Shown here one piece after another: positions 3,440 to 38,379 of a stretch of 64,000 nt of DNA. Position 1 is the stretch's first letter; each line of letters starts with the position of its first letter. A program made the translations under genes and the position numbers. The DNA is from Candidatus Binatia bacterium (lineage in GTDB: Bacteria; Desulfobacterota; Binatia; Bin18): assembly GCA_963666315.2 (NCBI GenBank), contig CAXXHG010000046.1, positions 1 through 64,000 on the forward strand. The letters are read 5' to 3'. Under the pieces are notes generated by a model that did no database searches, was not told the DNA's origin, and saw only the letters and a program-made list of their open reading frames with translations.

Positions 3440-4563
3440 TGCGGATTCTGTTGGTTGCGGGAGAAGCGTCGGGGGACTTGCACGGGGCCGATCTGGTCTC
3501 GGCCCTCAAAGCGCACCAGCCTCAGATCGAAGTCTTCGGTGTAGGCGGACCGGCGCTGCGCGGCGTCGGTATGCAAATCTTGGTCGATACGGCAACCATC
3601 GCCGGCATGGGCTTGTTTGAAGCCGCAGATAAGGTCCGCGCTATCCTGCGCACCTATCGAAAGCTGACAGCCCTGCTCCGCACCGATCCTCCCGATCTCC
3701 TGGTGCTGATCGATTTTCCGGAATTTAATTTGCGTTTGGCAAAAATTGCCAAACGCGTTGGCGTGCGCGTTTTTTACTATATTAGTCCGCAGGTCTGGGC
3801 GTGGCGTAAGCGGCGGGTCTGCACCATAGCCAAGCGGGTAGATTTGCTGGCCGCAGTCTTTCCTTTTGAACCGGATTTCTATGCCGCGCATGGCTGCTCG
3901 GTTGAATTTGTCGGCCATCCACTTGTTGATCGGGTGCGGCCGACTCGGTCACGGAATGACACCTTGCAGCGCTATCAGCTCGATCCGAGCCGCAAGACCA
4001 TTGTGCTCTTACCGGGGAGCCGCACCCAGGAAGTGCGCTACCTGCTCCCTCCCCTCCTGCAAGCGACAACTACCCTGGGCGCTACGTATCAATTCGTCCT
4101 GGCTGTGGCCTCTACGCTTGATCAGCAAACGCTGCGGGCCGAAGTAGAAGCGCACTCCGCCAGCATGCAGGTCGTTCAGGGCGATACCTACAACCTACTG
4201 CACGCCGCTGACCTCGCCATCGTTGCCTCCGGCACGGCCACACTAGAGACCGCACTGCTGGAGCGGCCTATGGTCATCGTGTATCGTATGGCCCCATTAA
4301 CCTACGCCCTGGCCCGCCTGTTTGTCCGGGTGCCGTACATCGGCATGCCCAACCTTATTGCCGGGCGGTGTGTCGTTCCTGAGCTCATTCAAGGCCAGGT
4401 GACCGCCCCGAATATTGCGGCCGCAGCCCGGCAGTTGCTTACGGATTCCCACACATATAGCGTAGCCCAAGAGGGATTACGCGAGGTTCGGAAACGTCTC
4501 GGAGAACCCGGCGCAGCCAAGCGGGCGGCCGGTTTAATTGCCCAAATGTTGGAAGGAACGTAG
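3439..4563 (+). CDS. lpxB: Lipid-A-disaccharide synthase
   Basis: AGEASGD, IDFPEFN, SPQVWAWR, FPFE, LLPGSR, SGTATLE. Confidence 0.97.
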   Translation: MRILLVAGEASGDLHGADLVSALKAHQPQIEVFGVGGPALRGVGMQILVDTATIAGMGLFEAADKVRAILRTYRKLTALLRTDPPDLLVLIDFPEFNLRLAKIAKRVGVRVFYYISPQVWAWRKRRVCTIAKRVDLLAAVFPFEPDFYAAHGCSVEFVGHPLVDRVRPTRSRNDTLQRYQLDPSRKTIVLLPGSRTQEVRYLLPPLLQATTTLGATYQFVLAVASTLDQQTLRAEVEAHSASMQVVQGDTYNLLHAADLAIVASGTATLETALLERPMVIVYRMAPLTYALARLFVRVPYIGMPNLIAGRCVVPELIQGQVTAPNIAAAARQLLTDSHTYSVAQEGLREVRKRLGEPGAAKRAAGLIAQMLEGT

Positions 4564-8452: not shown

Positions 8453-9571
8453 ATGGCACTGCTCCACTCTCTCGCCCACACAATCTGGAACCGTCAGGGT
8501 CTGGGCGGCAAGCTGGGTTGGGCAGCGCTCGTCCCTTTCGCGCTGGGATTCTCCGCCTTGGCCCGTGGTCGCAATATCCTCTACGACCACAGGCTCTTGC
8601 CCAGCGAACGGCTACCGTTTCACATCATTAGTGTCGGCAATCTCACCGTCGGGGGGACGGGTAAAACCCCTTTTGTGTTGTGGTTAGCACGCGCCCTGCA
8701 AGCCCGGCAGCACAGTGTGGGCATCGTGTGCCGTGGGTATAAAGGACGCAGCAGTGGGATCACGATAGTCGGCACCAACGGACACCCCCAGGCTACTCCA
8801 GTTGAGGTCGGCGACGAAGCCGTTATGTTAGCCCGCACATTTTTCGGCGTCGTGCTGGCCGGGCGTGACCGCGTTCAAGCGGCGCGGCAGGCACACCAGA
8901 ATTTCGGTCTGAATGTCTTGATTCTGGATGATGGTTTTCAGCACCGGCGGCTAGGACGCAGCCTCGACCTAGTGCTCATTCATGCTCGGCAGGGAATCGG
9001 CAATGGCTGGCTCCTACCCGCTGGCCCGCTGCGTGAGCCGCTGAGCGCGCTCCGCCGCACAGACATCGTCATCTTGACCAAAGGCCAGAATCTCCCCAAC
9101 CAAAATTCCCAAGATCACGAACTTCAGGACCTCCAGCACCCACCCTTTTCTTTCGACACGCATAATAAACCCTGCTTTCGTGCGGACCTGCGCCCTACCG
9201 TCCTGATTCAGTCAGAACACGGGCAGTGGCGGGAACTGCCACTCCTACGCTTAGCCGAGAAAAAGGTCCTGCTAGTGAGCGGAGTTGCAGATCCGTCGCT
9301 CTTCCACCGATTTGTGAGGGAAACCGAAGCCGAAATCATTGACGTGATAGAATTTCCTGACCATCACGTTTATACACAAAGGGACTGGCAAGCCATGACG
9401 GCAGCCGGCCGCAGGTGCGATCTTATTGTGACAACGGAAAAAGATCTGGTGAAGCTCGAGAAATTTCCATTTACCCCGGGCAAGCTCATGGCCTTACGGG
9501 TTGAGATGGTTGTCAAAGAGGCAGCCCAATTGCTCACGCATATCGAGCACCGGCTGGGTGATACGAAGTAA
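8453..9571 (+). CDS. lpxK: Tetraacyldisaccharide 4'-kinase
   Basis: [42 protein letters not shown]. Confidence 0.96.
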
Positions 9572-11881: not shown

Positions 11882-12622
11882 ATGCCCTTCTCCTTCCACC
11901 ATCTCGTACCCCCAAGCGGCTTCATTGAACAGAAAACGGATACCCATACCTGGTGGTTCAAAGACGGCCTACTAGCAGACATCCTCAAAGCGCTCGAACA
12001 CGTCGAAGACGGCAGTGCACAAAACCGGCGCGGCGGGAGAGGCACGATCCAGCGCGTCCGGCTGGGCGATCAAGGCAATGCCATAGTCCGCTCCTATAAA
12101 CGTGGCGGGTTCGTTCGTCACTTTGTGCGCGATCTCTACTGGGACCACCCGCCTCGCCCGTTTGCAGAATTGATCGGCACCGAAACTGTCCGCGAACGTG
12201 GCGTTCCGACTGTCGAGGTGCTCGGTGCCGGCGTAGAACGCGTAGCCTTTAGTCTTTACCGAGGAACACTGATCACGCGCGAAGCCGAAGGCTTTCTCAA
12301 TTGGTGGGACTGGCTGCAAACTCATCCACCAGCACAAGAACGACAGGTAGTCACACAAAAAGTCGTGCAGGCCATTACCCACATGCATGCTGCCGGCATC
12401 TACCACGCCGATCTCAATCTGACCAATATCCTTGTCCGTCTCGAATCCGGGCAGCTCGAGACTCTGATTATCGACTTCGACCGCGCCCGTATTTTCACGA
12501 CCGCCCTTTCCTCGTCTCGTCACAAACACACCTTCGACCGCCTCCTACGCTCGATCAAGAAACTTGATCCCAAGGCACAATTTCTTCCGTTCGCGGAACG
12601 CGACGTTTTTCTCAACTGCTGA
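11882..12622 (+). CDS. kdkA: Kdo kinase / LPS kinase family
   Basis: GRGT, RSYKRGG, R.FAEL, HADLNLTNILV, IDFD. Confidence 0.8.
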   Translation: MPFSFHHLVPPSGFIEQKTDTHTWWFKDGLLADILKALEHVEDGSAQNRRGGRGTIQRVRLGDQGNAIVRSYKRGGFVRHFVRDLYWDHPPRPFAELIGTETVRERGVPTVEVLGAGVERVAFSLYRGTLITREAEGFLNWWDWLQTHPPAQERQVVTQKVVQAITHMHAAGIYHADLNLTNILVRLESGQLETLIIDFDRARIFTTALSSSRHKHTFDRLLRSIKKLDPKAQFLPFAERDVFLNC

Positions 12623-12650
12623 GCATTCTGCAGCATTCCTTTGCCACCCA
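12572..12650 (+). repeat. 79-bp imperfect direct repeat, copy 1 (kdkA 3' end plus integrase HSFATH remnant)
   Basis: Aligns ungapped to 18327-18405, about 65/79 identical by hand. Confidence 0.85.
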
Positions 12651-12717
12651 TTCAGCCCGATCGATCGGCTCTAGCGGGCGTTGGAGCTGGGCGATGGCGC
12701 AGGGTGAGGCTGCAGGA

Positions 12718-12878
12718 GTTAGACGGCAAGAAGCTGCAGTCTCACATCGTTGATCCGAGACTTGAAGATTAGTGTCGAAAGATGCTACAGTTCTCCACAT
12801 TTGGGTGGTTTGAAGGGCTATTCTACGTTCGGAGTTAGCTTGCAAGAAGTCGCAGTGTTTGCCCATTTCATTCGGCAG
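12718..12878 (+). repeat. ~161-bp cassette-leader repeat, copy 1
   Basis: Starts GTTAGAC; aligns to 15868-16029 and 22776-22936; contains TTGAAG-N18-TACAGT. Confidence 0.85.
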
Positions 12879-12916
12879 ATCCCGTTCTTAATTTCCCCCC
12901 AGACTTTCACACGAGA

Positions 12917-13339
12917 TTGGAGAATGGAAGGGACATTTGGATAGATGCATATGTTAGAGAACGAGACAAACATTTCTTCGATCATTTCGCCCGACATGGG
13001 AGTGGGCAAGTCATACCGAAACCTAGACATGAAATCGAGGTAATACTTAAGGGATTTTCGAAAACCACATGCAAGAGAATTAGAAGAAAGAGAAAAAAGT
13101 CAATTCCGAGAGATGATATTTTTATTACCGTGGTTCATCCGTTGGACCGCTATTCTTGTGGCAGCGTTGATTTTCAGGCATTTGCTAATTCATTACCGCA
13201 AAATGATGCAGTGGTGATTTGCCATAGCGAATTCTATCCAGCTGACAATTTGGCGAAAGAGCGTATACAACTTTACACTAACGAAAATTCTCAACTAGAT
13301 AATAGAGAAATGGGTTACCTCAGTGGACTTTTTTCGTAG
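12917..13339 (+). CDS. Hypothetical AT-rich cassette gene (possibly 5'-truncated)
   Basis: Low-GC ORF ending 15 nt before the attC site; TTG start uncertain. Confidence 0.45.
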   Translation: MENGRDIWIDAYVRERDKHFFDHFARHGSGQVIPKPRHEIEVILKGFSKTTCKRIRRKRKKSIPRDDIFITVVHPLDRYSCGSVDFQAFANSLPQNDAVVICHSEFYPADNLAKERIQLYTNENSQLDNREMGYLSGLFS

Positions 13340-13354
13340 AATGCAATTGACGAC

Positions 13355-13429
13355 ACATAACATAAAGTTCAAGCTGTTCCTTTCAGTCACTCGGTCTGCC
13401 TTCGGTGGCCGCTTAACTAAACGTTTAAG
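13355..13429 (+). mobile_element. attC: Integron attC recombination site
   Basis: R'' ACATAAC, 5 nt, L'' GTTCAAGC ... L' GCTTAAC, 5 nt, R' GTTTAAG. L''/L' pair with one extra C (extrahelical base); 75 bp. R boxes deviate slightly from RYYYAAC/GTTRRRY. Confidence 0.85.
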
Positions 13430-13475
13430 CGTCCGCGGTGATGGCTCCGCCTCAATACAATCCAGGATTTTCTGA

Positions 13476-14282
13476 ATGACATTCGAGTCACTGATCTCCG
13501 AAGGCGCCGCCGCCGCTGCGGCTGTGCTGGCAGAGGCGGAGGAGTGGCAGAAGATCATGGCCCTGGATGCCGAGAAGGTGTTGGACGTGTACCTGGACAT
13601 CAAGTCCCCGCACGCCTACTTGGCGGTGCGGCCCTCGCTGGAGGTCGCCCGGGACTACAGGGTCCGAGTCAACTTCCTCCCGTACACGATGAGCTACGTC
13701 GCGGTCGGGCTCACGACGGGCGTGGAGCCCGACATGAAGCGTCGCCCCGCTACCCCGGCGGCCGATCGGAAGGCAAGGATGTACTACACCACGGCGCGGC
13801 AGTACGCCGTCCTGCAGGGGCTCCCGTTCCGGAGCCCGTACCGGCTCCTCGACTCTGCCTGGCCAAACAAGGCTTTCCTCTTCGCCAAGCGGCAGGGGCT
13901 GGAGGTACCCTTCCTGATGCACCTCTACGTGCAGGGCTGGGGCAGCGGCTGGCGGGACTACGAGATCGAGTCACTCGAGCGGCTGCGTGGTACGCTGGCC
14001 GAGGTAGGCGCCCGCACCGACGGTTTCGAGGAGTTCCTGGCCCCGAACGGCGCGGGGGAGGCTGAGATTAAGAGCTGTATGGCGAAGGCCGAGGCCGCTG
14101 GGTTCACGGGCGTGCCGCATTACGTCTTCAACGACGCCCCTTCGGGCCGGGAGCTCGGCCTCTTCGGCCGGGAGCACCTCGCGCTCATCCGGGAAAAGTT
14201 TGGGGCGGAGGGGCTGGCCCGAACGCGTGCAGTGCGCCCGAAGTTCTCGCACGCCTGGCACGGCGCCCCCGCGAAGCTCTAA
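13476..14282 (+). CDS. DsbA-like / HCCA isomerase family thioredoxin-fold protein
   Basis: YLDIKSPHAYLA, GFTGVPHY, LFGREHL; markedly higher GC than neighbours. Confidence 0.8.
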   Translation: MTFESLISEGAAAAAAVLAEAEEWQKIMALDAEKVLDVYLDIKSPHAYLAVRPSLEVARDYRVRVNFLPYTMSYVAVGLTTGVEPDMKRRPATPAADRKARMYYTTARQYAVLQGLPFRSPYRLLDSAWPNKAFLFAKRQGLEVPFLMHLYVQGWGSGWRDYEIESLERLRGTLAEVGARTDGFEEFLAPNGAGEAEIKSCMAKAEAAGFTGVPHYVFNDAPSGRELGLFGREHLALIREKFGAEGLARTRAVRPKFSHAWHGAPAKL

Positions 14283-14305
14283 GGGGAGCTCGTTTCGACG
14301 GATGA

Positions 14306-14332
14306 GCAATGTTCGTCCATTTCAGTCGGCCG
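14306..14332 (+). repeat. 3' fragment of the cassette-leader repeat
   Basis: GCAATGTTCGTCCATTTCAGTCGGCCG versus GCAGTGTTTGCCCATTTCATTCGGCAG of copy 1. Confidence 0.55.
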
Positions 14333-14358
14333 CCTCATTAGTAGTTTGCTAAAATAAA

Positions 14359-14919
14359 ATGATTAAAACAATAGAAGCAGCGTACGCATTTGTGCTCGAA
14401 GTGAAAATTTGCATGATTTTCGCTCAAAAAACGGTGCATTCTTCTCTGTGGGAGAATGTCGACCTCCCTGACAGACAACCGGGGGAGAAAGGACGGGGGC
14501 AGAAAGTCACAGCGGTTTGGGCGTGGAAAAACAAATTGCCTGCGCTCTACCCTGATGAAATCTTTTACGGCAAAATACGAGGTGGACACGCAGTATTAAT
14601 GGAGATGAATTATCTGCGTGAAGAGCATTTTCCACAAGCGTATCAGCCTGTGGAAAATTTAAGTCGACTGGCCCAGTTTACTTATGAGCAGGTGAGGTTG
14701 GAACCTGGAGAGACTGGGGCACTCAGAGATCTCGTAATCTCCGAGTATGGCGCAACAAAAAGTCAGTTCGATACGGCATTGAAGGATTTACAAATTTCAC
14801 TGAATGTGGTGCGTTCAAATGGCCTCCACGTTGAGAGGGATACGTGGGTGACGTTTGAAGAGCTCTATCCGGATATTTGGGACCAATATGTCACAGATGT
14901 AGGTTTCAATGGATATTAA
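14359..14919 (+). CDS. AlkZ-related winged-helix protein (putative)
   Basis: SLWE..., W.WKN.LP..., IFYGKI.GG, FD.ALKDLQ.SL.VVR pattern. Confidence 0.5.
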   Translation: MIKTIEAAYAFVLEVKICMIFAQKTVHSSLWENVDLPDRQPGEKGRGQKVTAVWAWKNKLPALYPDEIFYGKIRGGHAVLMEMNYLREEHFPQAYQPVENLSRLAQFTYEQVRLEPGETGALRDLVISEYGATKSQFDTALKDLQISLNVVRSNGLHVERDTWVTFEELYPDIWDQYVTDVGFNGY

Positions 14920-15364
14920 AGTTGATGATTTGACCGGCGCTGAGATAGCTGAATTCTTGCAGGAACATCTCCGGAGTATGGTGCAATATTCTCCGCCCGA
15001 AAGCAACCATGCGCTAGATATTGAGGACTTGCGTAAGCCTGAAATTACATTTTGGAGCGTATGGGCTAATTCCGAATTGCTGGGATGCGGGGCTCTTAGA
15101 GAATTAAACTCCGATCATGGTGAAATTAAATCTATGCGTACTGCTGCATTGCATCTACGTAAGGGAGTCGCAGCCAAATTGCTCAAGCATATATTAGAAG
15201 AGGCGAAACATCGCAAATATAAGCGGGTGAGTTTAGAAACAGGGTCAATGGATGCCTTTGTTCCGGCTCATAATTTATACGCTACTTTTGGCTTCAAAAA
15301 GTGCGGGCCATTCGCAGATTATGTTGAAGATCCATATAGCATATATATGACAAAAGAATTATGA
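14909..15364 (+). CDS. GNAT N-acetyltransferase (YedL-like)
   Basis: SPPES.HALD, GCGAL, GEIKSMRT, SLETG, PFADY. Confidence 0.9.
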   Translation: MDIKVDDLTGAEIAEFLQEHLRSMVQYSPPESNHALDIEDLRKPEITFWSVWANSELLGCGALRELNSDHGEIKSMRTAALHLRKGVAAKLLKHILEEAKHRKYKRVSLETGSMDAFVPAHNLYATFGFKKCGPFADYVEDPYSIYMTKEL

Positions 15365-15404
15365 AGGAGGCATTATGCCTACCAAAGAATCAAAGGAGGT
15401 TCTT

Positions 15405-15804
15405 ATGGGTTTTGAGGCACTCAATACATGGCTCGATGCCTACGGTAAGGCGTGGGAAAACTAAGACCCCGATGCCGCAGCAGCGCTCTTCACCGAGGAT
15501 GGGACCTACGCCTGGGGTCCGTTCACCGAACCGATCAAGGGCAAGCAGGCCATTCGACGGGCCTGGGAGACGGCCACCCAGGGGAACCACGGGGATCGCG
15601 TTTGGTTGCGAACCCCTCGCGGTGACTGAAGACGGTCGGCATATCGCACGCTGGTGGGCGTCGATGAAATCCGTGCCGGCGAGCCGGTCCGTCAGGATGG
15701 AAGGGATCTTTCTGAACACGTTGACCGAGAGTGGTCGATGCAGTGGATTCCGAGAGTGGTGGAACGAAGATCCACCCGCAACGGTAGCTTCGGAGTTCGA
15801 ATAA
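15405..15804 (+). pseudogene. SnoaL/NTF2-like protein, premature stop plus frameshift
   Basis: MGFEALNTWLDAYGKAWEN*DPDAAAALFTEDGTY...; C-terminus (ARWWASM..EGIF..FREWW) in another frame. Confidence 0.8.
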
Positions 15805-15867
15805 ATTCGGCCAGTCTAGTCCCAGCCCATATAGCCTGGCTCAGCCAAGGGCGTTAGACTCCGGTGG

Positions 15868-16029
15868 GTTGGGCTACACCAAGCTGCAGTGGAACACCTT
15901 TAATACTAGACCTGAAGGTTTGGGGCGAAAGATGCTACAGTCCGACACGATTTTGCGGTCTGCGGAGCTATTTTGCGTTCAGAGTCCGCGTGCGAGACCT
16001 TGCAGTGTTCTCCCATTTCATTCACTCAG
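15868..16029 (+). repeat. ~161-bp cassette-leader repeat, copy 2
   Basis: Starts GTTGGGC, 15 nt after GTTAGAC of an eroded attC-like site (15833-15859); shares AAGCTGCAG, GAAAGATGCTACAGT, CCCATTTCATTC. Confidence 0.8.
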
Positions 16030-16089
16030 AAAAAACAGAGAGTACCTGTCACTCCTGGAGGAGTTTATGCGCTGCAGACATACTGTTTT

Positions 16090-16271
16090 CGCACTGGTCC
16101 TTAATCGTTGGGCAGCATGACATTCCAGAGGTGATCAAGATAAGCGACACGCTGGCACAGAAGATTACGACCGCAAAGAGAACGGTACTCCCCAACGCCG
16201 GGCATCTCCCGTATCTGGAACAACCAGCGGAGTTCAACCATATTGTATTGGATCTTCTCAACGCACAGTGA
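16090..16271 (+). pseudogene. Alpha/beta hydrolase C-terminal fragment
   Basis: LIVGQHD...LPNAGHLPYLEQPAEFN; N-terminal catalytic part absent. Confidence 0.75.
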
Positions 16272-16283
16272 GGGCTCTCAAAC

Positions 16284-17603
16284 TTGCTATTACACGATAG
16301 AAGATACCCTAACCTGACGTTCCAGCGCTTCGCCGCCGGCTGGCTAGTGGGCCTGGTTGTGGCCACCAGCCTGCTGCATCCGGACCTAACTCAGGCCCAA
16401 CCCCGGGGCTTTATGGTCGACGCAGTCTTTGGCAGTGAACGGCTCCCCGGCCAGTTTAATCGCCCCAGCGGGGTAGCAGTGGATAGCCAGGACCGCATTA
16501 TCGTGGCGGATACAGCCAACCACCGCATACAAGTGTGTGATGCCCAAGGGATCTGTACCGCGTTTGGCAGATTCGAGAGTGCCCCTCCTTGCCAGTTTAA
16601 TTTCCCCAGCGGGGTGGCAGTCGATAGCCAAGACCGCATCATTGTGGCGGATACGTACAATTACCGCATCCAAGCGTGCGAGGCCCAAGGGACCTGTACG
16701 GCGTTTGGCAGTCTAGGCAATGACCCTGGCCAGTTTACGACCATCGGCGGGGTGGCGGTCGACAGCCAAGACCGCATCATTGTGGCGGACTATAATATTT
16801 TCAGCTTGCACGAATTTAGGGTGATGGAGGCCCGGATCCAAGTGTGTGACGCCCAAGGGGCCTGTACCGCGTTTGGCAGATTCGAGAGTGCCCCTCCTTG
16901 CCAGTTTAATTTCCCCAGCGGGGCGGCAGTCGATAGCCAAGACCGCATCATTGTGGCGGATACGTACAATTACCGCATCCAAGTGTGCGAGGCCCAGGGG
17001 ATCTGTAAGGCGTTCGGCAATTTTGGGAGTGATCCCGGCCAGTTTAGTTCCCCCAGCGGGGTAGCGGTGGATAGCCGAAACCGGATTATCGTGGCGGATA
17101 AGGGCAATGACCGCATCCAGGTGTGCGGCCCCCAATGGGCTTGTACCGTGTTTGGCAGTCCAAGCAGCGCCCCCGGCCAGTTTAGTTCCCCCAGCGGGGT
17201 GGCCGTGGATAGCCAAAACCGCATTATTGTGGTGGATCGTTCCAACCACCCCATCCAAGTGTGTGACGACCAGGGGATCTGTGAGGCGTTCGGCGTTTTA
17301 GGAAAGGCCCCCGGCCAGTTTGATCACCCTAGCGGGGGGGGGGCGGTGAATAGCCAGGACCGGATTATCGTGGCGGATACACGCAACCACCGCATCCAAA
17401 TCCTCATCGTCTCGGCAAGTCTCCTCGGAAGTCCCAGTTACTGCAGGGTCAATGGGCTGTGTGGCGTAGGGGAAGGGGATTGTGATGGCGGCCACGAATG
17501 CCAGGCCGGCCTTGTGTGCGTGAACGATGTGGGCGCGCAGTACGGCTTCCGCACCATCGTCGATGTGTGTGTAGCCCCATCAGGTGGAGCGCAAGCGGGT
17601 TGA
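16284..17603 (+). CDS. Secreted NHL-repeat beta-propeller protein with Cys-rich C-terminal domain
   Basis: Seven PGQF..PSGVAVDSQDRIIVAD..N.RIQVC-type repeats; signal peptide; CGVGEGDCD..ECQAGLVC tail. Confidence 0.9.
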   Translation: MLLHDRRYPNLTFQRFAAGWLVGLVVATSLLHPDLTQAQPRGFMVDAVFGSERLPGQFNRPSGVAVDSQDRIIVADTANHRIQVCDAQGICTAFGRFESAPPCQFNFPSGVAVDSQDRIIVADTYNYRIQACEAQGTCTAFGSLGNDPGQFTTIGGVAVDSQDRIIVADYNIFSLHEFRVMEARIQVCDAQGACTAFGRFESAPPCQFNFPSGAAVDSQDRIIVADTYNYRIQVCEAQGICKAFGNFGSDPGQFSSPSGVAVDSRNRIIVADKGNDRIQVCGPQWACTVFGSPSSAPGQFSSPSGVAVDSQNRIIVVDRSNHPIQVCDDQGICEAFGVLGKAPGQFDHPSGGGAVNSQDRIIVADTRNHRIQILIVSASLLGSPSYCRVNGLCGVGEGDCDGGHECQAGLVCVNDVGAQYGFRTIVDVCVAPSGGAQAG

Positions 17604-17707
17604 GATGCCGTGGCGACTGGCAATTTGCGTGCAGCCAACAACGCCGTTAGCCAAGTCGTGAAAGTATTCCAGCCGTCCCCACTGCCGGTACGGAGAAAGG
17701 CACAAAC

Positions 17708-18328
17708 ATGACCGCAGACCTTTTTGGAGCGATGGAAAAGCTTGAACGCATTCCAATGCAAGACGCGGAGGTTTACTACCGACGACAACTTCCGCTTGCG
17801 GAGTCGGATAACGTCGTCATGCGCCGCCTGATTGATGAAGTTCCTTGGAGAGCTGAAACGGTCATTGTGTGGGGAAAGACCTTCCCACAACCGCGTCTCA
17901 TAGCGTGGTATGGCGATCCCGGTAAGAATTATACATACTCTGGCATTCGTCTCGAGCCGCTGCCCTGGACACACGCCTTGCTCGATATCAAGCGCAGCGT
18001 TGAAGCTGTGGCTGGCAACGACTTCAATAGCGTTCTCCTGAACTACTACCGAGACCACAGGGACAGCATGGGGTTGCATAGCGACGACGAGCCGGAACTG
18101 GGCGAACGACCCATCATTGCCTCGTTCAGCTTGGGAGAAGAACGGACGATCATCTTCAAGCATAAGACCAAGAGAGAGATGAAGCCCGTTCGGCTGAGGC
18201 TAGCATCTGGCAGCCTGCTCTTGATGAAAGGTCAGACTCAGCACCATTGGAAGCACGGGATCAACAAGGAAACACGTCCGCACGGGCCCCGTATCAATTT
18301 GACGTTCAGGCGCATCCGTTCTGTCTAA
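17708..18328 (+). CDS. alkB: Alpha-ketoglutarate-dependent dioxygenase AlkB family
   Basis: QPRLIAWYGD, NYYRD..DSMG.HSDDE, HHWKHG, RINLTFR. Confidence 0.9.
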   Translation: MTADLFGAMEKLERIPMQDAEVYYRRQLPLAESDNVVMRRLIDEVPWRAETVIVWGKTFPQPRLIAWYGDPGKNYTYSGIRLEPLPWTHALLDIKRSVEAVAGNDFNSVLLNYYRDHRDSMGLHSDDEPELGERPIIASFSLGEERTIIFKHKTKREMKPVRLRLASGSLLLMKGQTQHHWKHGINKETRPHGPRINLTFRRIRSV

Positions 18329-18405
18329 GGGGCAATTTCTTCCGCTCGCGGCCCGCGACGTTTTTCTCAACTGCGCAGCATCTCCTGGCCTTCCTTTGCC
18401 ACCCA
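18327..18405 (+). repeat. 79-bp imperfect direct repeat, copy 2
   Basis: Matches 12572-12650. Confidence 0.85.
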
Positions 18406-18556
18406 CATCGTTGAGAATGGTGATGACATTCCTCCCGCTTAGGACCTCCTGGGTCACAACGATATCCAGACTATAATGATCGATACGCACGTATTGATCC
18501 GTGAGCGACATGGGACAACAAGCCCGGCAGATTGCTTAGAGAACCACTGTGTGTGA
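18389..18556 (+). pseudogene. intI: Integron integrase C-terminal remnant
   Basis: Translates PSFATHIVENGDDIPPA*DLLGHNDIQTIMIDTHVLIRERHGTTSPADCL versus the IntI pattern HSFATHLLE.GYDIRTVQELLGH.DV.TTMIYTHVLNRGG.GV.SP.D. Confidence 0.8.
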
Positions 18557-18754
18557 CATGCCGTAGATTTGGCAGGATGTCATTCCGGGGGCGAAGAGTA
18601 AGAGGGAACGTGTGGTCAATCCGAATGTTTTGTCACAATCGGGCCAATACGGGAGCAGCTAAACACCGCAAAAATTGCAAGATTTATCTATTTTCAATCA
18701 GCATATTATGATTTATACACCTTACGTGAAAAAACGGGAATAGAAACAATCGAG

Positions 18755-19576
18755 ATGAGCATCATAAAATCAATCATTAAGCCTATCCGTATAAAGGCGT
18801 ATAGATACCAAACTTATATTAAATTATCCCAATTACGCAATATTAAAAAGCCAGCAGCAGTCAAACTTACAAATGCCATTTATAATGCATTAAAGAATAA
18901 TCTTGACCCTGAAGAAAACAATTGGGTAGAGAGGATAGAGGAAAAAGAACAGTGTTGAATAATTCTTCAACAAAAAACCCAATAACCATTGTTGGAGCGG
19001 GAAAACCGAGTTCTGCCCGTACTGAAGAAGAAACGTATCAGGGCGTTACTAGAGATACGACAGTAGGTGCAATGTACCGAATAGCGGGTAAGCTGTATTT
19101 TCGGTCATTACTCTCATTTAAGCTCGTCGCAGAATTTAAGCCATTAAAGAGTATAGAACTTGGAACATGCTTAGGTATTTCAGGAGCATACCATGCCTCG
19201 GCTCAAATGCTTAATGAAAGCGGGAGCCTGACGACACTCGAAGGAGCACAATCTTTAGCCTCTTTAGCCGAAAAAACCTTCCACAACTTGGCTCAGATAA
19301 CACCCGTGTAGTCAGTGGACGATTTCAAGATAATTCAGACAAAGTACTGACTGAAAATAAACCTATAGATTATGTTTTCATTGACGGCCATCACGATGAG
19401 CAAGCGACCATCGCCTATTTTGAGAAATTCATGCCGTATCTCTCGAAAAACTCAATGTTAGTTTTTGATGATATTTCGTGGTCTGATGGAATGCGGCATG
19501 CGTGGTAAGACATTGAAAAACACGAAATCGTTAAAATTTCTGAACTTGGGAGTATTGGGGATCTGCGTTTTAGATG
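18755..19576 (+). pseudogene. Class I SAM methyltransferase (Methyltransf_24-like), multiple frameshifts; low GC
   Basis: IELGTCLGIS, TLEG, then IDYVFIDGHHDE and FDDISWS in other frames. Confidence 0.8.
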
Positions 19577-19750
19577 AAACTCTTGAGGAGAAGTACAGTT
19601 TTAGCGTTCCGTTGTTCTAATCTCTGCGCGAAGTCCTCACACTGGAGATCTCCAAGCGCCCGGCGACTCCCACTTCCTGGAGTCACAAAAAGTGTTGAAG
19701 CGGATTGCTGGAGCGCACGCAGCCACATCCTTATCAAGCTTCCGGCCCGC
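19570..19750 (-). mobile_element. Possible eroded IS3-family transposase fragment
   Basis: IRMWL...TLFVTPGS weakly resembles the IS3 integrase core WL....TLFIEPGSPW. Confidence 0.25.
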
Positions 19751-19783
19751 CCCATTCCCTTGCCACCTCCCAATTTATTATTC

Positions 19784-21115
19784 TCAATCAGTTTTACGTT
19801 CATTTTGTGAACGATACTCAAGAAGGAGAAACAAAATTAAGGTCACAGTGCCTATAAGAGAAACGTTGAGAAGAATATTGAGAAAGTGGCGCCAACCATC
19901 CACTTCGTCTGCCACTGCCCCGCCTAAAAAATCGAACACCATGGCGGCCAGATAGCCAATTGCATCAATAATACCCACGAGGACACCGCAGTGTTTGCCA
20001 CCAAAATCAACCGAGAATACACTCATCGGGATGTAATAGCAGGGGGCAATAGCTAAACCAAAAAACATAATGGCCGAAAGCGTCGTCCACAGGCGGAAAG
20101 AGTTCGGCATGCCCAATTGTGGGATGGCAAGCAAAACAGCGACACAACATACAGCCAGCCCCATTAAACCACCGAGAGCGAAAATGCGCTTTTTCTTGGT
20201 GAGCGCATCGAAAACAAACCCGCCGGCGAGTACGGAAATCAAACAACCGATCGGAAAAGCCGACGATGTGATCGCGGCAATCCCCGCAGTCAAGCCAAAC
20301 GTTTCTTTCAGATAGATGGGAATGAAGCTTTGAAACTCCATGAGCACCGTTAAGCACATGATGCTGGCACAGATCAGCCACACGCGCGGGCTTCGGATAA
20401 AACTGAGCAGGGCTTCAGCCAAGGTAGCGTCATCGAGAGGATGCGGTCGAGGACCGGGTCTGTGCCGAAGATCTCTGTCGCTTGCCGCAAGCGCCTCTAA
20501 GCCCACATCTTTTGGGGACTGCTTGAGGACGAAAAAGAGGCATAAAATTACGCCGGCTGTAATCACAACAGAGACCGCGATAACCTCCCGCCAAGAAATC
20601 ACGAGCAACAGGCTGCCAAGGACCAGCGCCGTAAACAAGGAACTAAATCTTGAACTAGAAGAGAGGATGCCCCATATGCGTCCGCGCCAGTTCGGCGCGT
20701 ACCATACCCTAATGAGGTTGGCCATCGAAGGCCAACCCGCCGACTTTGCGAATAGGGCGATGAAGTAGGCTACCGAGAAGTACAGCGCACCGGACAGCGT
20801 GCCGAAAATTCCGGTGGCCAACATACACAAGCCGAGAGAGAACAAAAAAACTCGACGTCCCCCGATCTTGTCAGCCAAGATGCCATTGATGAGTTTGCCA
20901 CTGAGAGTGCCGGCTGTACCCCAGCCGATGATAGCTCCCCAAGCCGTCTTATTGAGGCCTAGTGCCGGGTCGCTGAGCATGGCGGGACCCGAAATCACGA
21001 CGGTGGCCTGGCACATATAGAGTGCGGCGTAGCCCACATACATGCACCCGAGGATGATCATCTCCCACCGAAATCGTGGATCACCACGAAATCGGTTGCC
21101 CACGTCAGCAAACAT
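19784..21115 (-). CDS. MFS transporter (GlpT/UhpC OPA-like)
   Basis: About 12 hydrophobic segments, GKLINGILADKIGGRR, GWP...VWY..WRG. Confidence 0.88.
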   Translation of the reverse strand: MFADVGNRFRGDPRFRWEMIILGCMYVGYAALYMCQATVVISGPAMLSDPALGLNKTAWGAIIGWGTAGTLSGKLINGILADKIGGRRVFLFSLGLCMLATGIFGTLSGALYFSVAYFIALFAKSAGWPSMANLIRVWYAPNWRGRIWGILSSSSRFSSLFTALVLGSLLLVISWREVIAVSVVITAGVILCLFFVLKQSPKDVGLEALAASDRDLRHRPGPRPHPLDDATLAEALLSFIRSPRVWLICASIMCLTVLMEFQSFIPIYLKETFGLTAGIAAITSSAFPIGCLISVLAGGFVFDALTKKKRIFALGGLMGLAVCCVAVLLAIPQLGMPNSFRLWTTLSAIMFFGLAIAPCYYIPMSVFSVDFGGKHCGVLVGIIDAIGYLAAMVFDFLGGAVADEVDGWRHFLNILLNVSLIGTVTLILFLLLEYRSQNERKTD

Positions 21116-21222
21116 GCACCCTCACCCAGCCAATTGCTTGAACCGCGGAGCATGTCCCAGTCGTCGTTAGTGGGATATAAGGGATGCTACGCTTAAAAGC
21201 CAGAGGGCAAAGGGAACCGTGA

Positions 21223-21270
21223 CACCTCAGAATCAAAAGCGTCTTCAATTGTCACCCTGCCCTTGACTAT
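21223..21270. repeat. ~47-bp direct repeat copy 1, IS-end-like
   Basis: CACCTCAGAATCA....CGT.TTCA.TTGTCACC..CCC..GACTA, shared with 22695-22740. Confidence 0.65.
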
Positions 21271-21333
21271 GACGGAACGAGTTCCGTCCCGACGCGTGAC
21301 TGGAGCATCTGCAGCACTCCCGTCACACTCCCA

Positions 21334-22608
21334 TCATTTGCCCGCCTGCTGACGGGACGCTTTCGGCTTCAATCGCACCGGCAATCGTTTCAGCCCGCCG
21401 ACGAAGTTTGCGTGCACGCGCTCGACCGGACCGATAATCTCGATGCCGTCGTACCGATCCAACACCTCTTGCAGGGCGAAGGAGATCTCCATTTTTGCGA
21501 GCGGACCGCCGACACAAAAATGTGGCCCGCCGCTAAAACCCAGGTGCAGGTTCGGCTGGCGCGTCACGTCAAACTTGTGCGGATGATCGAAGGCCTCCTC
21601 ATCGCGATTCGCCGACGCTAACCAGGCGATGATGCGCTCCCCCTCTTTGATGGGCTTACCGCCGATCTCCGTATCAGCCGTGGCCACGCGCATGACCGAA
21701 ATAACCGGGCTCGTCCAACGCACCATTTCCTCGGCCGCCAGGCGGATCAGCTTGGGATTCTCACGCAGTTTAGTCATCTGGTCCGTATTCTGCAGCAGCG
21801 CCAATACACCCCCGGCGAACGCGTTTCGGGTGGTTTCGAATCCTGCGATCAGCAGCACCAGACCGTTATACGCGACTTCGGAATCCGTCAACCTTTTTCC
21901 ATCAATCTCCGCATTGGCCAACCGTGTGAGCGGATCGCTGAACGGGCAGCCACGCCGTTCGAGAGCCAGCTTGCTACAATAAGCGCGCATGCTGCGAAAG
22001 CCACTCAACGTCGTTTCGAGCATCGAGCTGCCCGCCTCTACGTATTCTGGATCACCGCTGCCGAGGGTCATCTTGCCCCATTTGAAAATGGTGTCCCAAT
22101 CTTCCTCTGGTATCTTGAGGATATCGCAGATGACCGCCATGGGAATCTTCGCGCCGATATCGCTGACAACATCGCATTCGCCGTTTTCGGGCAAGTGATC
22201 GAAGATGTCCCTGATGAGGCGCCCGCATCGTTCGGAGAATTCCTCTAGCGCCTTCGGTTTGAACGGGGGATCGACGAATTTGCGCATCTCGGTATGGCGC
22301 GGGGGATCGGTAACCAGGATGCTTTGACCGATCCCGAACGCCTCGGCCGCAACGATTTCGACATCACGATTGAAGATCGGCATATCCCCTTCCCGCTCGG
22401 AACTGAAGAGGGCCGTGTCGTTGAGAATCTTCTTGACATCCGCATGTTTGAATACTGACCAGAGGCCTAGCCCATCCGGACCCACCGTCCAGTGTACGGG
22501 ATCGTCGCTACGCAGTTGCGCGAACAAACCGTAAAACCGATCTTCGTCTGCAAAAAACGCGGGATCGGTGAGTTTTTGATCGACCGTTTGGGCGGTGTTC
22601 TCCGTCAT
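21334..22608 (-). CDS. Cytochrome P450
   Basis: DPPRH, AGFETT (I-helix), EEMVR (ExxR), FSGGPHFCVG heme motif. Confidence 0.95.
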   Translation of the reverse strand: MTENTAQTVDQKLTDPAFFADEDRFYGLFAQLRSDDPVHWTVGPDGLGLWSVFKHADVKKILNDTALFSSEREGDMPIFNRDVEIVAAEAFGIGQSILVTDPPRHTEMRKFVDPPFKPKALEEFSERCGRLIRDIFDHLPENGECDVVSDIGAKIPMAVICDILKIPEEDWDTIFKWGKMTLGSGDPEYVEAGSSMLETTLSGFRSMRAYCSKLALERRGCPFSDPLTRLANAEIDGKRLTDSEVAYNGLVLLIAGFETTRNAFAGGVLALLQNTDQMTKLRENPKLIRLAAEEMVRWTSPVISVMRVATADTEIGGKPIKEGERIIAWLASANRDEEAFDHPHKFDVTRQPNLHLGFSGGPHFCVGGPLAKMEISFALQEVLDRYDGIEIIGPVERVHANFVGGLKRLPVRLKPKASRQQAGK

Positions 22609-22694
22609 AGTTCGCCTCCTCCCGGCGGATAATTTCGCGGGTCGTTTCTATGCTAACGCACATCCCTCCCGGTATGGGGCAAAAGGGTCGGTAT

Positions 22695-22740
22695 CACCTC
22701 AGAATCATACACGTTTTCATTTGTCACCGCCCCCGACTAC
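22695..22740. repeat. ~47-bp direct repeat copy 2, IS-end-like
   Basis: Matches 21223-21270. Confidence 0.65.
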
Positions 22741-22775
22741 TCTTGAAATATGGCCCAGGTGTTCGGTTGCAGGAG

Positions 22776-22936
22776 GTTAGCCTGCAAGAAGCTGCAGCTA
22801 AACACTTTTGATACGAGACTTGAAGATTTGAGACGAAAGATGCTTACAGTTCGGCATGTTTGGTGACCTGAAGAGTGCTTTCGCGTTCAGAGTTCGCGGA
22901 CAGGAAGTCGCCGTATTTACCCATTTCATGAGGCAG
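22776..22936 (+). repeat. ~161-bp cassette-leader repeat, copy 3
   Basis: Starts GTTAGCC; roughly 75% identical to copy 1 by hand alignment. Confidence 0.85.
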
Positions 22937-23389
22937 TCTACTGCAGATTGTTTCTACTATAGCCGGTTTAGTTATTTAATAGCAGTACTATACCGCTTTA
23001 TACGCCCTGCGCCGGATGCCAAGACGGGGTTCGCAAGTTTGCTTACCCTCATTGCCTTTATGCTCGTGGCAGGCCCACTGTGGTCATCGATGACTGTCAA
23101 GTCAGAATTCTTTGGGCTCACGTTAACAAAAGAAGCTGAGTCTCAGATGAAAGGCTACGTCAAGATTCTGAATAGCTATGGCCGTTTGGCAGAAGCTCCA
23201 GACGTCGGTCTGCAGGAAGCCGCCCAACAACTCGAAGCAAGTCGTCAGCGGGTTCAAGAGGGCATTGAGAGTCAAGATACGACTATCGTTTTGGAAGGGA
23301 TGCGTAGCGGCACCCAGATTGTAGAGAGGATTGCTTCGAGTCTCTGGAAAAAGAAACCCGAGGAACGCAAGCAGACTCGGATTCAGTGA
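22856..23389 (+). CDS. Hypothetical membrane-anchored protein, probably 5'-truncated
   Basis: First ~27 codons lie inside the leader repeat; the rest has a TM segment and a coiled region. Confidence 0.4.
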   Translation: MFGDLKSAFAFRVRGQEVAVFTHFMRQSTADCFYYSRFSYLIAVLYRFIRPAPDAKTGFASLLTLIAFMLVAGPLWSSMTVKSEFFGLTLTKEAESQMKGYVKILNSYGRLAEAPDVGLQEAAQQLEASRQRVQEGIESQDTTIVLEGMRSGTQIVERIASSLWKKKPEERKQTRIQ

Positions 23390-28507: not shown

Positions 28508-28580
28508 GCTAGGGAACGCCAAGAATTGGAAGTGTAATTTTGAAGCGTAATTAAAATCCCATAGCCAAAGATGTTGACAG
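28508..28580 (+). repeat. Possible highly eroded 5' half of the cassette-leader repeat
   Basis: CAAGAA..G.AG....TTTTGA..CG....AAAGATG.T.ACAG collinear with copy 3. Confidence 0.35.
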
Positions 28581-28605
28581 CAGTAGTCGGACAGACCCAC
28601 TCTTT

Positions 28606-28700
28606 GTCGGTGGGTTACGCTCTGCTAACCCACCCTCTTGTCCACACAGGATGTCGGATTACGCTCCGCTAATCCGCCCTACGGGCCTTCGCCCTACAGG
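28606..28700. repeat. Pair of GTAG-type REP palindromes
   Basis: GGTGGGTTACGCTCTGCTAACCCACC and GTCGGATTACGCTCCGCTAATCCGCCCTAC. Confidence 0.75.
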
Positions 28701-36868: not shown

Positions 36869-37445
36869 GGCAGAGGTGCACCGCAAAACCAACGAAACAG
36901 ATATCCAACTCAGCCTCCAGATCGAAGGCGAGGGTAAGTATACAGTGTCAACCGGCGTCCCCTTTCTGGACCACATGCTGGAGCTATTTACTCGACACGG
37001 ATTCTTTAACCTTACGCTGCACGCAAAAGGTGACACTGCAGTTGACGACCATCATACGGTCGAAGACGTCGGCTTGGCACTCGGACTCGCCTTTCGAGAG
37101 GCGCTCGGTGACAAACATGGCATTCGGCGCTTCGGGGACGCCACGGTCCCACTGGATGAAGCGCTGGTGTCATGCGTGGTCGATCTCAGCGGGCGGCCCT
37201 TTCTGGTCTATAATCTCGACATTCGCCAAGAAAAGGTCGGCACTCTTGCGACTGAGCTCATCCACGATTTTTTTCTGGCGTTTACCAATCAGATAGGCAT
37301 GAATCTGCACTTCAATATGACCCAAGGCCGAAATCCACATCACATCATTGAAGCCGGCTTCAAAGCCTTTGCCCGTGCGCTGAGCAGCGCGGTGCAGCAC
37401 GATCCCCGGGTGAAAGGAGTGCTTTCTACAAAAGGAAGTTTGTAG
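36855..37445 (+). CDS. hisB: Imidazoleglycerol-phosphate dehydratase
   Basis: FLDHML, DDHHTVED, LDEAL, NPHHIIEA, STKGSL. Confidence 0.97.
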   Translation: MAVRKAEVHRKTNETDIQLSLQIEGEGKYTVSTGVPFLDHMLELFTRHGFFNLTLHAKGDTAVDDHHTVEDVGLALGLAFREALGDKHGIRRFGDATVPLDEALVSCVVDLSGRPFLVYNLDIRQEKVGTLATELIHDFFLAFTNQIGMNLHFNMTQGRNPHHIIEAGFKAFARALSSAVQHDPRVKGVLSTKGSL

Positions 37446-38352: not shown

Positions 38353-38379
38353 CAACTTGGAGCTGTTTTCAACAAAAAA

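Follow-up and report, generated by a model that had tools for sequence, protein, structure and literature searches.

In the class 1 literature, the attI site of integrons contains several integrase-binding GTT boxes in direct and inverted orientation. The attC sites of integrons span 57–141 nt. Xer-type recombinases act on 11-6-11 core sites, and modules are bounded by such sites. Repeats of the Correia, ERIC and BOX kind are non-coding and intergenic, measure 100–200 bp, include sub-modules that stand alone and can carry promoters. These three are named as modular intergenic repeats or miniature elements by Nijveen, Matus-Garcia and van Passel (2012, PMC3575422), whose survey describes putative mobile promoters as homologous upstream regions before unrelated genes. 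The working criterion of that survey is at least 80% similarity over at least 50 nt, and its authors call promoter activity unproven for their own set. Integron cassettes, by the account in PMC4889954, rarely contain promoters. An atypical but known integron layout, in which transcription of the integrase gene runs toward attI and the cassettes, is described in PMC3607928.

Three copies of a non-coding element of ~180 bases precede unrelated genes within the 64-kb stretch of DNA analysed here (the window), which comes from an uncultured Binatia-type bacterium; all three lie in one variable gene island. We tentatively propose that the element is a junction module, derived from a cluster of recombinase sites that stayed behind at the 5′ edge of captured gene segments. 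An nhmmer profile built from the three copies and searched against both strands of the window recovered every full copy claimed in the initial annotation, each at E ~1e-58, and no other full copy. The matches span 12702–12886 (E 9.5e-59; 3.8e-53 with a four-sequence model), 15850–16037 (E 3.5e-58) and 22758–22944 (E 3.9e-58), and a repeat-family listing of the window groups the three as one family (D4). Homology extends ~15–20 nt to the left of the starts given previously, so that the model places copy 1 at 12699–12880, copy 2 at 15846–16030 and copy 3 at 22754–22938. All three are intergenic and on the + strand within the accessory island, as claimed, with pairwise identities of 64–77% over 173–175 aligned columns.

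A decayed 3′ fragment on the + strand (14286–14338), corresponding to A′ of the layout described below and previously placed at 14306–14332, lies between a DsbA-like gene and an AlkZ-related gene. Model positions 138–184 align to 14286–14332 with 5.4 bits, a weak match (E 0.17 when the whole window is searched, 0.0021 when the search space is 904 nt), and 33 nt of the fragment are an indel relative to the related locus L002. The eroded 5′ half that had been suggested at 28508–28580 gave no match in a restricted search, even at E ≤ 100.

Each copy has an A-B-A′ layout. Part A (~60 bp) contains three 12-nt GTT boxes, two direct and one inverted (consensus GTTAGNCTGCAG), part B (~57 bp) contains promoter-like hexamers, and A′ repeats A directly, in diverged form. 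In copy 1, motif search placed the first box, M1 (GTGAGGCTGCAG), at 12704–12715 on the + strand, with homologues at 15853–15864 and 22761–22772; M1 and M3 of this copy form an inverted repeat (I1) that is 92% complementary. The inner pair, M2 on the + strand and M3 on the − strand with a spacer of 5–6 nt, forms a 28-bp palindrome at 12718–12745 (homologues at 15868–15895 and 22776–22803). We read its 11-6-11 arrangement as a putative double-strand core-site layout for a tyrosine recombinase. Palindrome symmetry is kept in four of four sequences, with 79.5% of 44 cells paired versus 20–43% in slid controls. A′ of copy 1 (12832–12878, + strand) repeats the M2–M3 region directly and terminates with the invariant CCCATTTCAT. 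It differs from the M2 pattern by 3 mismatches in 21 (0.00 matches expected), and self-alignment of A with A′ exceeds the best shuffled score both in copy 1 (36 versus 29) and in the L003 copy (32 versus 30), with an identical register in all four sequences aligned. The ends of the element are direct rather than inverted repeats, and terminal inverted repeats are absent from all three copies. The GTT-box motif has 31 matches versus 14.2 ± 3.8 expected, nine of which fall at homologous places inside the three copies; at other segment edges there are no further GTT boxes, and the remaining matches are at chance level.

The smaller motifs reported in the initial annotation are retained in part. 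A second GTTAG in copy 1 does lie 116 nt downstream, at 12834. Of the GTTRRRY starts, GTTAGAC (12718) and GTTGGGC (15868) follow the pattern, whereas GTTAGCC (22776) departs from it in the strict sense, having C where a purine is required; the L003 orthologue of copy 3 has ATTAGCC at this position. The sub-motif AAGAWG-N3-CAG occurs six times in the window versus 1.08 expected; in its exact form it is found three times in copy 1 and once each in copies 2 and 3. An upstream sequence resembling an attC right arm is found at copy 2 only (GCCAAG-GGC-GTTAGAC, 15844–15859), and the 12 nt upstream of copies 1 and 3 contain no AAC.

The copies sit in a mosaic island directly downstream of an LPS-core operon. 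The island is made of small units whose presence varies among the relatives L001–L003, and the genes behind the copies are indeed unrelated, lying in compositionally different segments (GC of neighbouring genes from 0.40 to 0.67). Copy 1 starts ~80 nt past the stop of the conserved gene upstream, a Kdo/WaaP-type kinase by Pfam (11882–12622). Copy 2 is followed by the C-terminal fragment of an alpha/beta-hydrolase (weak Pfam match, E 0.0079) and then by an NHL-repeat gene (Pfam). In front of intact genes, the element terminates 27–41 nt before the gene start.

The C-terminus of an integron-type tyrosine recombinase is preserved as a relic at 18392–18553 on the + strand, co-oriented with the cargo and interrupted by one in-frame TAG (TIGR02249, E 7.2e-12). 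Forty-eight residues, at 18392–18535, match positions 267–314 of the 315 in that profile. The XerD profile matches less well (E 6.1e-07), and Pfam Phage_integrase gives E 0.0007. Furthermore, the 3′ end of the kinase gene plus 28 nt (12572–12651, + strand; family D8) is repeated at 18327–18406 with 82% identity, and SFATH of the integrase relic is encoded by the last 15 of those 28 nt (12637–12651). A box pattern like that of a worn attC follows the cargo ORF of copy 1 (13355–13429, + strand); it consists of two inverted AAC-N5-GTT pairs, and its inner boxes are complementary apart from one additional base. This pattern has one match in the window versus a mean of 0.4 in 20 shuffles, and the stretch has no attC-type fold (z −0.59 and −0.42). 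A possible worn attC on the + strand at 15812–15859 terminates with box M1 of copy 2 (GTTAGAC); its 48 nt fold at −8.1 kcal/mol (z −0.81), closed by an outer 6-bp stem.

Comparison with relatives places rearrangement junctions at the left edge of the element in three of three comparisons, although these junction arguments draw on only five sequences and very few events. L001 and L003 cease to be homologous to the window at 12688–12712, within or just before M1. L003 holds an orthologue of copy 3 (L003:9146–9326, E 1e-34); its homology to the window there starts at the box cluster, and L003 has ~1.5 kb of additional DNA that runs precisely up to the left edge of its copy. In L002, a PIN-domain unit is inserted. 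L001 has only the 31-nt palindrome from the 5′ end of the element (L001:3792–3823, E 2.3e-06 with a 5′ sub-model), with unrelated DNA on both sides, and this stand-alone occurrence indicates that the palindrome is a separable unit.

Oriented intergenic repeats, box anatomy, junctions at segment edges, a mosaic context, an integrase relic and the precedent of a co-oriented integron layout (PMC3607928) support the reading of the element as a junction module. The copies would be paralogues of one ~180-bp non-coding module at the 5′, operon-proximal edge of small acquired gene segments; these segments would sit in a recombination hot spot that adjoins the LPS-core operon on its downstream side. 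The recombinase that assembled the island may once have bound and recombined DNA at the box cluster, and the worn integron-type integrase at 18392–18553 is the candidate enzyme. The module would have been copied or left behind at each segment insertion, and A′ may be a second half-site produced by such an event. Binding of a recombinase to the boxes, crossovers at them and the spread of the module by this route are inferred. Several observations point the other way. The boxes lack the AAC-spacer-GTT simple site of attI and attC, their GTT and AAC pointing outward; compensatory changes in the box symmetry do not exceed those in shuffles; and only ~4 of the roughly 10 gene junctions in the island have the module. 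An intact recombinase is found neither in the window (Pfam, 61 ORFs) nor, by tblastn of 56 related loci, next to the kinase gene.

The copies today appear to be drifting without detectable constraint. The longest invariant run is 10 nt (P = 0.25 by column permutation), and the three longest runs jointly give P = 0.02 for the three window copies and 0.59 with L003 added. Copy 3 and its L003 orthologue agree at 138 of 181 positions (76%), versus 249 of 303 (82%) in the adjoining pseudogenised cargo. The element is not better conserved than that cargo, and therefore a present-day function is not indicated, a point that also counts against the junction module. The divergence pattern fits neutral drift.

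These conservation values bear on the suggestion that the element is a portable promoter or regulated leader, a 'putative mobile promoter' carried to whatever gene follows, which would comprise an extended −10 (TGnTACAGT), a weak −35, a ~125-nt 5′ UTR and, upstream, a palindrome serving as operator or activator site. Judged from sequence, this is possible but unlikely. The element is co-oriented with the downstream gene in all copies and ends 39 nt before the next start in copy 1 (TTG 12917), 41 nt before it in L003 (ATG with AAGGA) and 27 nt before it at the 14.3-kb fragment (ATG 14359). The block [T/C]TGAAG-N18/19-TACAGT is present as described, with the extended TG one base ahead of TACAGT in copies 1 and 2, and the palindrome centre lies ~45 nt upstream of the −35-like hexamer; three of six pairs agree at 42 of 50 positions each in their best 50-nt window, within the working criterion of PMC3575422. 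As read in copy 1 (12762–12791, + strand), the hexamers TTGAAG (12762–12767) and TACAGT (12786–12791) are 18 nt apart, with homologous blocks in copies 2 and 3. Scored against the sigma-70 hexamers, however, the copies reach 8/12, 7/12 and, with a 19-nt spacer, 8/12, so that a scan with a threshold of 9/12 calls none of the three, and the region holds 8 promoter-like sites versus 8.6 ± 2.7 by chance. Nor are the hexamers better conserved than the rest of the element: conservation of the block is within expectation, and some of its parts are altered in L003. TACAGT belongs to one of the three internal AAGAWG-N3-CAG copies, and so may owe its existence to the repeat rather than to RNA polymerase. 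Moreover, the cargo of copy 2 is a gene fragment, that of copy 3 lacks its native start through a 41-nt deletion, and + strand cargo could be transcribed by read-through from the upstream operon. A relic of a non-autonomous mobile element or transposon end, with the spaced direct repeats as transposase-binding sites, is distinctly improbable. Repeated insertion beside the 3′ end of a conserved gene would leave successive ends in one orientation, each accompanied by cargo of its own, a layout that may be likened to Tn7-type ends and modular intergenic repeats. The multiple direct repeats of 12–25 nt within ~180 bp, the single orientation, the way each copy borders a different cargo on the gene-proximal side, the nearness of the first copy to the stop of the kinase gene and the decay of copies through deletion all fit such a history. 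Yet the window contains no transposase (Pfam), the element has neither an inverted partner end nor terminal inverted repeats, and there is no minus-strand copy in the window or the 56 loci. The element had no match among 72,556 plasmid and 50,697 phage records, and its core pattern was unmatched in 185,579 species genomes.

It is highly doubtful that the 3′ third, A′, was once or still is translated in the + frame (..GGLKSYFAFRV.LQEVAVF.HFIRQ). Over the last 46 columns, substitutions at codon positions 1, 2 and 3 number 27, 6 and 41, and amino-acid conservation gives p = 0.037 by column permutation; two minus frames score similarly (p = 0.045 and 0.063), so no frame survives six-frame correction. 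A 35-position peptide profile found one genuine match in 1.84 billion representatives, a 93-aa protein (P0127) with the motif at residues 61–90 (E 6.1e-11; 20/29 identities to copy 1), but this protein lacks any relatives and may be an ORF call running through a copy. In copies 2 and 3 the frame continues into the ORF downstream; against this, a conserved start codon and a Pfam match are absent, upstream indels change the frame, the L003 motif has a stop and a 1-nt deletion, and relatives of the copy 3 cargo (5/5 proteins) begin downstream of the element. A structured RNA, such as an sRNA or riboswitch-like leader, is most unlikely. The + strand has a consensus fold of 51 pairs (−26.35 kcal/mol) and the 5′ hairpin is retained in all copies, but folding energies are ordinary (z −0.84, +0.46 and +0.43), compensatory pairs number 2/51 on the + strand and 6/43 on the − strand, and 371 of 500 shuffles reach the double changes observed in the hairpin. 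Rfam gave no family at gathering score across the window and one chance-level match in the element region (E 3.7), and the initial suggestion of structure consequently fails on stability, covariation and Rfam. That the elements are the lineage's attC sites, the folded single-strand sites of a classical integron array, is barely credible. GTT and AAC boxes are present in them, their place between cargo genes is that of attC sites in a sedentary integron, and the integrase relic is nearby. Their ends, however, are direct and not inverted repeats, and at ~180 nt they exceed the attC range. The 101–102-nt unit between the AAC-type and GTT-type boxes folds as DNA at only −6.6 to −10.1 kcal/mol (z −0.74 to +1.17), no better than shuffles, with unpaired ends in 8/8 folds, and three pattern scans found no good-armed attC-like pair ending at an element GTT site. 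The initial integron reading is partly supported: the island has an integron character, with its integrase relic and worn-attC-like boxes, but the element itself does not behave as an attC.

Compared with the putative mobile promoters of PMC3575422, the copies are clustered in one 10-kb island, have an A-B-A′ anatomy and are 64–77% identical versus the ~92% typical of the survey; like them, the element is similar non-coding sequence upstream of non-homologous genes in one genome, with no attached known mobile element or Rfam family. Unlike Correia, ERIC and BOX repeats, it lacks terminal inverted repeats, has a very low copy number in the DNA examined, keeps a strict single orientation and is confined to one island; it shares with them a non-coding, intergenic nature, a 100–200-bp scale and a sub-module that occurs alone. 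As a long 5′ leader within a presumed cassette it corresponds to no described cassette feature, and it differs from attC in not being an imperfect palindrome and not folding. The island nonetheless resembles gene cassettes in its small single-gene units of mixed composition with a repeat between them (PMC4889954), in the GTT at the left edge of the unit and in the worn attC-like patterns at 13355–13429 and 15812–15859. The element has no evident sequence likeness to dif, and modules here are not bounded on both sides; as in Xer-type systems, a 28-bp site with two inverted 11-bp arms and a 6-bp centre lies beside exchangeable gene modules. Unlike attI, it has no AAC-(5–7 nt)-GTT simple site, its fourth box is ~85 nt away, it is present three times rather than once per integron, and the integrase is only a relic. 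Like attI, it has GTT-type boxes in direct, direct and inverted order with another direct one downstream, and copy 1 occupies the place expected of an attI, just after the short integrase relic at 12637–12651 and reading toward the cargo, as in the co-oriented integrase and attI layout described in PMC3607928.

A search of the whole window with a profile of the three copies (nhmmer) recovered full-length elements at 12702-12886, 15850-16037 and 22758-22944, all on the + strand (E ~1e-58 each), and no further full copy on either strand of the 64 kb. Repeat finding within the window grouped the same sequences as one family (D4), and all three full copies described in the initial annotation were thus recovered. 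A four-sequence profile places the boundaries at 12699-12880 (copy 1), 15846-16030 (copy 2) and 22754-22938 (copy 3), all +; the copies originally described stand, but homology extends 15-20 nt to the left of the starts given for them. Pairwise identity among element copies is 64-77%. A 3′ fragment proposed near 14.3 kb corresponds to a weak match to model positions 138-184 (E 0.17 window-wide, 0.0021 in a 904-nt search), 33 nt of which are an insertion/deletion difference from the related locus L002, and an eroded copy proposed near 28.5 kb was not detected.

The 56 fetched loci total 957,807 nt. In L003 there is a single full copy (9146-9326, E 1e-34), orthologous to copy 3 and lying before the same gene; in L001 there is no more than a 31-nt palindrome (3792-3823), which corresponds to the 5′ end of the element. 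The records of L001-L003 encode relatives of the kinase upstream of copy 1 at 86%, 79% and 78% protein identity, and further relatives at ~60% identity occur in many Candidatus Binatia records. Scanning 185,579 species genomes for exact IUPAC matches to the conserved core gave none, and the source genome itself is therefore absent from that collection; plasmid and phage collections left the element unmatched. Weak minus-strand core matches in five loci (L048, L009, L006, L007 and L012; E 0.0049-4.3), which share one syntenic position, and another in an NHL gene of the window were set aside as chance likeness. As wider DNA, Rfam and peptide-profile searches found very little, the element family, though real, is rare and seems restricted to the lineage; its known distribution is a lower bound, with copy number covering the 64-kb window and the 56 loci.

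Every copy of the element has the layout A-B-A′. Part A (~60 bp) contains three 12-nt boxes with the consensus GTTAGNCTGCAG, of which M1 and M2 are direct and M3 is inverted; M2 and M3, with a spacer of 5-6 nt between them, make up a 28-bp palindrome of 11-6-11 geometry. The GTT-box motif has 31 matches in the window versus 14.2 expected, nine of them being the homologous boxes of the three copies. Palindrome symmetry is retained in 4/4 sequences, with 77% and 80% of cells paired in two alternative hairpins versus 20-48% in slid controls; compensatory change in these hairpins was not above that in shuffles. Part B (~57 bp) contains the promoter-like TTGAAG-N18-TACAGT, and A′ repeats A directly, in diverged form, and terminates in the invariant CCCATTTCAT, so that the ends of the element are direct repeats. 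Self-alignment of A and A′ is significant in copy 1 (36 versus a shuffled maximum of 29) and borderline in L003 (32 versus 30), and its register is identical in all four sequences. The sub-motif AAGAWG-N3-CAG belongs to this repeat system; its reported recurrence of about three times per copy holds for copy 1, whereas copies 2 and 3 have one each. Tandem Repeats Finder found no tandem array in copy 1. A possible internal periodicity of three units (~52-64 nt), visible by eye, is unconfirmed.

Upstream of the island lies an LPS-core operon (lpxB, msbA-like, waaA, lpxK, heptosyltransferase and Kdo/WaaP kinase genes), and the stretch from 12.7 to ~23.6 kb is a mosaic of small units that are variably present among L001-L003. 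The GC content of neighbouring island genes spans 0.40 to 0.67, and many units are broken: the cargo of copy 2 is a hydrolase fragment (weak Pfam match, E 0.0079), a methyltransferase fragment lies within the window, and PIN and glyoxalase fragments lie in L002. Compared with L003:9327-9380, window 22936-22960 has a 41-nt deletion that took away both the ribosome-binding site and the start codon native to the copy 3 cargo, a small membrane protein; relatives of this protein start downstream of the element in 5/5 cases. A further deletion of ~360 nt at window 23561/23564, seen against L003:9975-10336 and L002:9746-10110, corresponds to a small gene present in both relatives. The island is losing genes through deletion. 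The cargo proteins have no common family, and neither PADLOC nor NCBIfam gave a link between the cargo genes. Where the downstream gene is intact, 27-41 nt separate the end of the element from the next start codon.

Other observations concern the island and its surroundings. The AlkZ-related and GNAT genes overlap in the window but are separated in L002 by an insert of 834 nt (L002:3129-3963) that carries a PIN-domain (VapC-like) fragment; the insert is a toxin-antitoxin-type unit, and such units are often seen in chromosomal cassette arrays. A 52-nt repeat containing GTGACA...TGTCAC (family D12; 21205-21256 and 22677-22728, 79% identical) stands directly upstream of MFS transporter and cytochrome P450 genes, both on the minus strand, and is a second case in the island of an upstream region common to different genes. 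At 28600-28700, two short hairpins (stem-CGCTNNGC-stem) are followed by CCCTAC-like tails; they look like REP-type repeats and delimit the variable region on its right. Farther along, the histidine operon (35528-45312; hisD, hisB, hisH, hisA and hisF by Pfam) is split twice by unrelated genes, at 37777-39513 by DUF6036 and luciferase-like genes and at 41273-44491 by genes for a 486-aa repeat protein, a CBS protein and a C92 amidase. Insertions of genes among core genes seem frequent in the source genome.

The C-terminal ~50 residues of a tyrosine recombinase survive as a relic at 18392-18553 (+), which best fits the integron-integrase model (TIGR02249, E 7.2e-12, versus 6.1e-07 for XerD); this 48-residue C-terminal relic scores 45.3 bits against a TIGR02249 cut-off of 265, and the region of the IntI-specific segment is missing. 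The window (61 ORFs scanned) and the related loci yielded no intact integrase. The final 50 nt of the kinase gene, together with the first five codons of the relic (SFATH), occur twice, at 12572-12651 and 18327-18406, with 82% identity (family D8). An integrase formerly stood directly behind the kinase gene, reading toward the cargo, an atypical layout that one study describes for Treponema integrons (PMC3607928). The duplicated join points to the arrival, by recombination from a relative, of a second 'kinase end / integrase relic / cargo' segment. The likeness of the element to DNA following the relic is at chance level (scores 20-24 versus shuffled maxima of 26-29). In L001 and L003 the 70 nt after the kinase stop (12623-12692) show roughly the same degree of conservation as the kinase gene, and contain a perfect 12-nt palindrome, CCGATCGATCGG, at 12657-12668.

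The strongest pattern of the element is positional. Its left edge coincides with a rearrangement junction in 3/3 comparisons, and in L001 the palindrome occurs alone with foreign DNA on both sides. Because of this junction-coincident edge, the lone palindrome, the spacing to downstream start codons, the box cluster and the integrase relic, we tentatively prefer, at somewhat below an even chance, to see the element as a junction module: a former cluster of recombinase sites, which would have stayed behind at, or been copied to, the 5′ edge of segments that were captured. The module would now be drifting. Copy 3 and its L003 orthologue are 76% identical over the element and 82% identical over the adjacent pseudogenised cargo, and at the sequence level no sign of present selection on the element is apparent.

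A portable promoter or leader, as the initial annotation proposed, would fit the positions of the modules, but the quality of the sequence gives it no support and it is unlikely. The sigma-70 standard was a pair of hexamers, 16-18 nt apart, that match at 9 or more of 12 positions, the extended -10 TG (present in copies 1 and 2) being unscored; the core reaches only 8/12 in copy 1 and 7/12 in copy 2, and copy 3 has 8/12 and a spacer of 19 nt. A promoter scan called no site inside any copy, promoter-like sites in the region are no more numerous than in shuffles, and the block described as best conserved is not conserved beyond chance. A putative mobile promoter is defined, in a passage of PMC3575422, by at least 80% identity over at least 50 nt at -150..-50 of non-paralogous genes. 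The best 50-nt windows reach 42/50 in the pairs copy 1/copy 3, copy 2/copy 3 and copy 3/L003 and 39/50, 40/50 and 36/50 in the other three, and copy 1 spans -218 to -39 relative to the TTG at 12917; the family qualifies in 3/6 pairs, under a definition that is silent on function. A relic transposon end or non-autonomous element is distinctly unlikely. Terminal inverted repeats are absent in 3/3 copies, for which reason a miniature inverted-repeat transposable element was rejected, and no empty site that could reveal a target duplication was found among L001-L003.

Descent from coding sequence has a slim probability. Across the last 46 columns, substitutions are distributed 27/6/41 over codon positions 1/2/3, and amino-acid conservation of the 3′ third gives p = 0.037 in the + frame and 0.045 and 0.063 in two minus frames; the + frame has no conserved start codon and is interrupted by a stop in L003. 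Its peptide profile found one genuine match among 1.84 billion protein representatives, P0127 (93 aa; 20/29 identities to copy 1), for which no relatives were found; P0126, P0128 and P0129, long proteins hit in 7-15 short stretches, were set aside as unrelated. A structured RNA, also raised initially, is very improbable: folding energies are ordinary (MFE z -0.84, +0.46, +0.43), compensatory pairs number 2/51 on the + strand and 6/43 on the - strand, and Rfam gave no match at or above the gathering threshold in the whole window, with one chance-level match (E 3.7) in 12600-13000. Classical attC sites are the least probable reading of all. An integron cassette opens at G|TTRRRY, where an attC or attI upstream of it is closed; this start holds strictly in copies 1 and 2, and copy 3 (GTTAGCC) and its L003 orthologue (ATTAGCC) depart from it. 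The attC-like right arm said to precede each copy is found at copy 2 only, and the DNA preceding copy 3 and its counterpart in L003 shows no folding beyond that of shuffles (z -0.74 to +1.88). The element itself was rejected as an attC, which would be an imperfect inverted repeat (R''/L'' with L'/R') with a stable single-strand hairpin: its ends are direct rather than inverted, terminal inverted repeats are lacking in 3/3 copies and no qualifying hairpin forms, the single-stranded unit folding at -6.6 to -10.1 kcal/mol with z of -0.74 to +1.17 in 8/8 folds. An attC-like box pattern behind the copy 1 cargo (13355-13429) is one match versus 0.4 expected by chance for the two-simple-site pattern, weaker patterns occur at 15812-15859 and at 17617-17684 (GTTAGCC at 17646), and none of the three folds better than shuffles. 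The stretch at 17617-17684, 68 nt absent from L002 and L003, has a small hairpin and GCCAAC-N6-GTTAGCC 55 nt before the start of a 2OG-Fe(II) oxygenase gene, and may be a worn attC. Two box-and-arm attC scans found nothing above shuffles inside the island, and an energy-filtered scan gave weak or coding-region matches only; a CALIN is defined, in a passage of PMC4889954, as a cluster with a minimum of two attC sites and no integrase. The remaining probability goes to none of these explanations.

A more ambitious reading, quite improbable as a whole, would make the module the working 'head' of a non-classical Binatia gene-capture system with an integron-related integrase, GTT-box sites and a regulated promoter. 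The integrase would recombine double-stranded GTT-box sites, namely two direct boxes, the 11-6-11 palindrome and a further box downstream; the same ~180-bp leader would be added to the 5′ edge of each captured segment, standing in for a folded attC at the 3′ edge, and the leader would additionally supply the regulated promoter. The result would be a cassette system with a standard part at the front of the gene. The copies are too few to decide the nature of the element. What was originally observed is largely right, and its interpretation holds in part, for place and context, with function unproven: the element is a real repeat, seemingly lineage-restricted, whose internal anatomy is unusual and whose setting is a decayed capture site.

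The evidence favours the modest reading, a drifting junction scar, which alone would be a useful marker of a decayed, previously unreported integron-like capture site by the LPS-core operon of Binatia, a widespread but uncultured lineage. If the element were a true recombination site or portable regulated promoter, it would show how captured genes can be given a standard front end. No literature linking Binatia or Binatota with integrons was found outside subscription journals. Because integron cassettes are described, in a passage of PMC4889954, as rarely carrying promoters, a shared leader, if true, would bear on the expression of silent cassettes and on how cassettes are made. A long common 5′ leader is a feature of the element and is not described for integron cassettes. 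In attI, several GTT boxes follow one another as direct, direct and inverted, and the boxes of the element are arranged likewise; unlike attI, it lacks the AAC-spacer-GTT simple site and is present three times. Xer-type sites have an 11-6-11 geometry, and the element resembles them in that geometry only.
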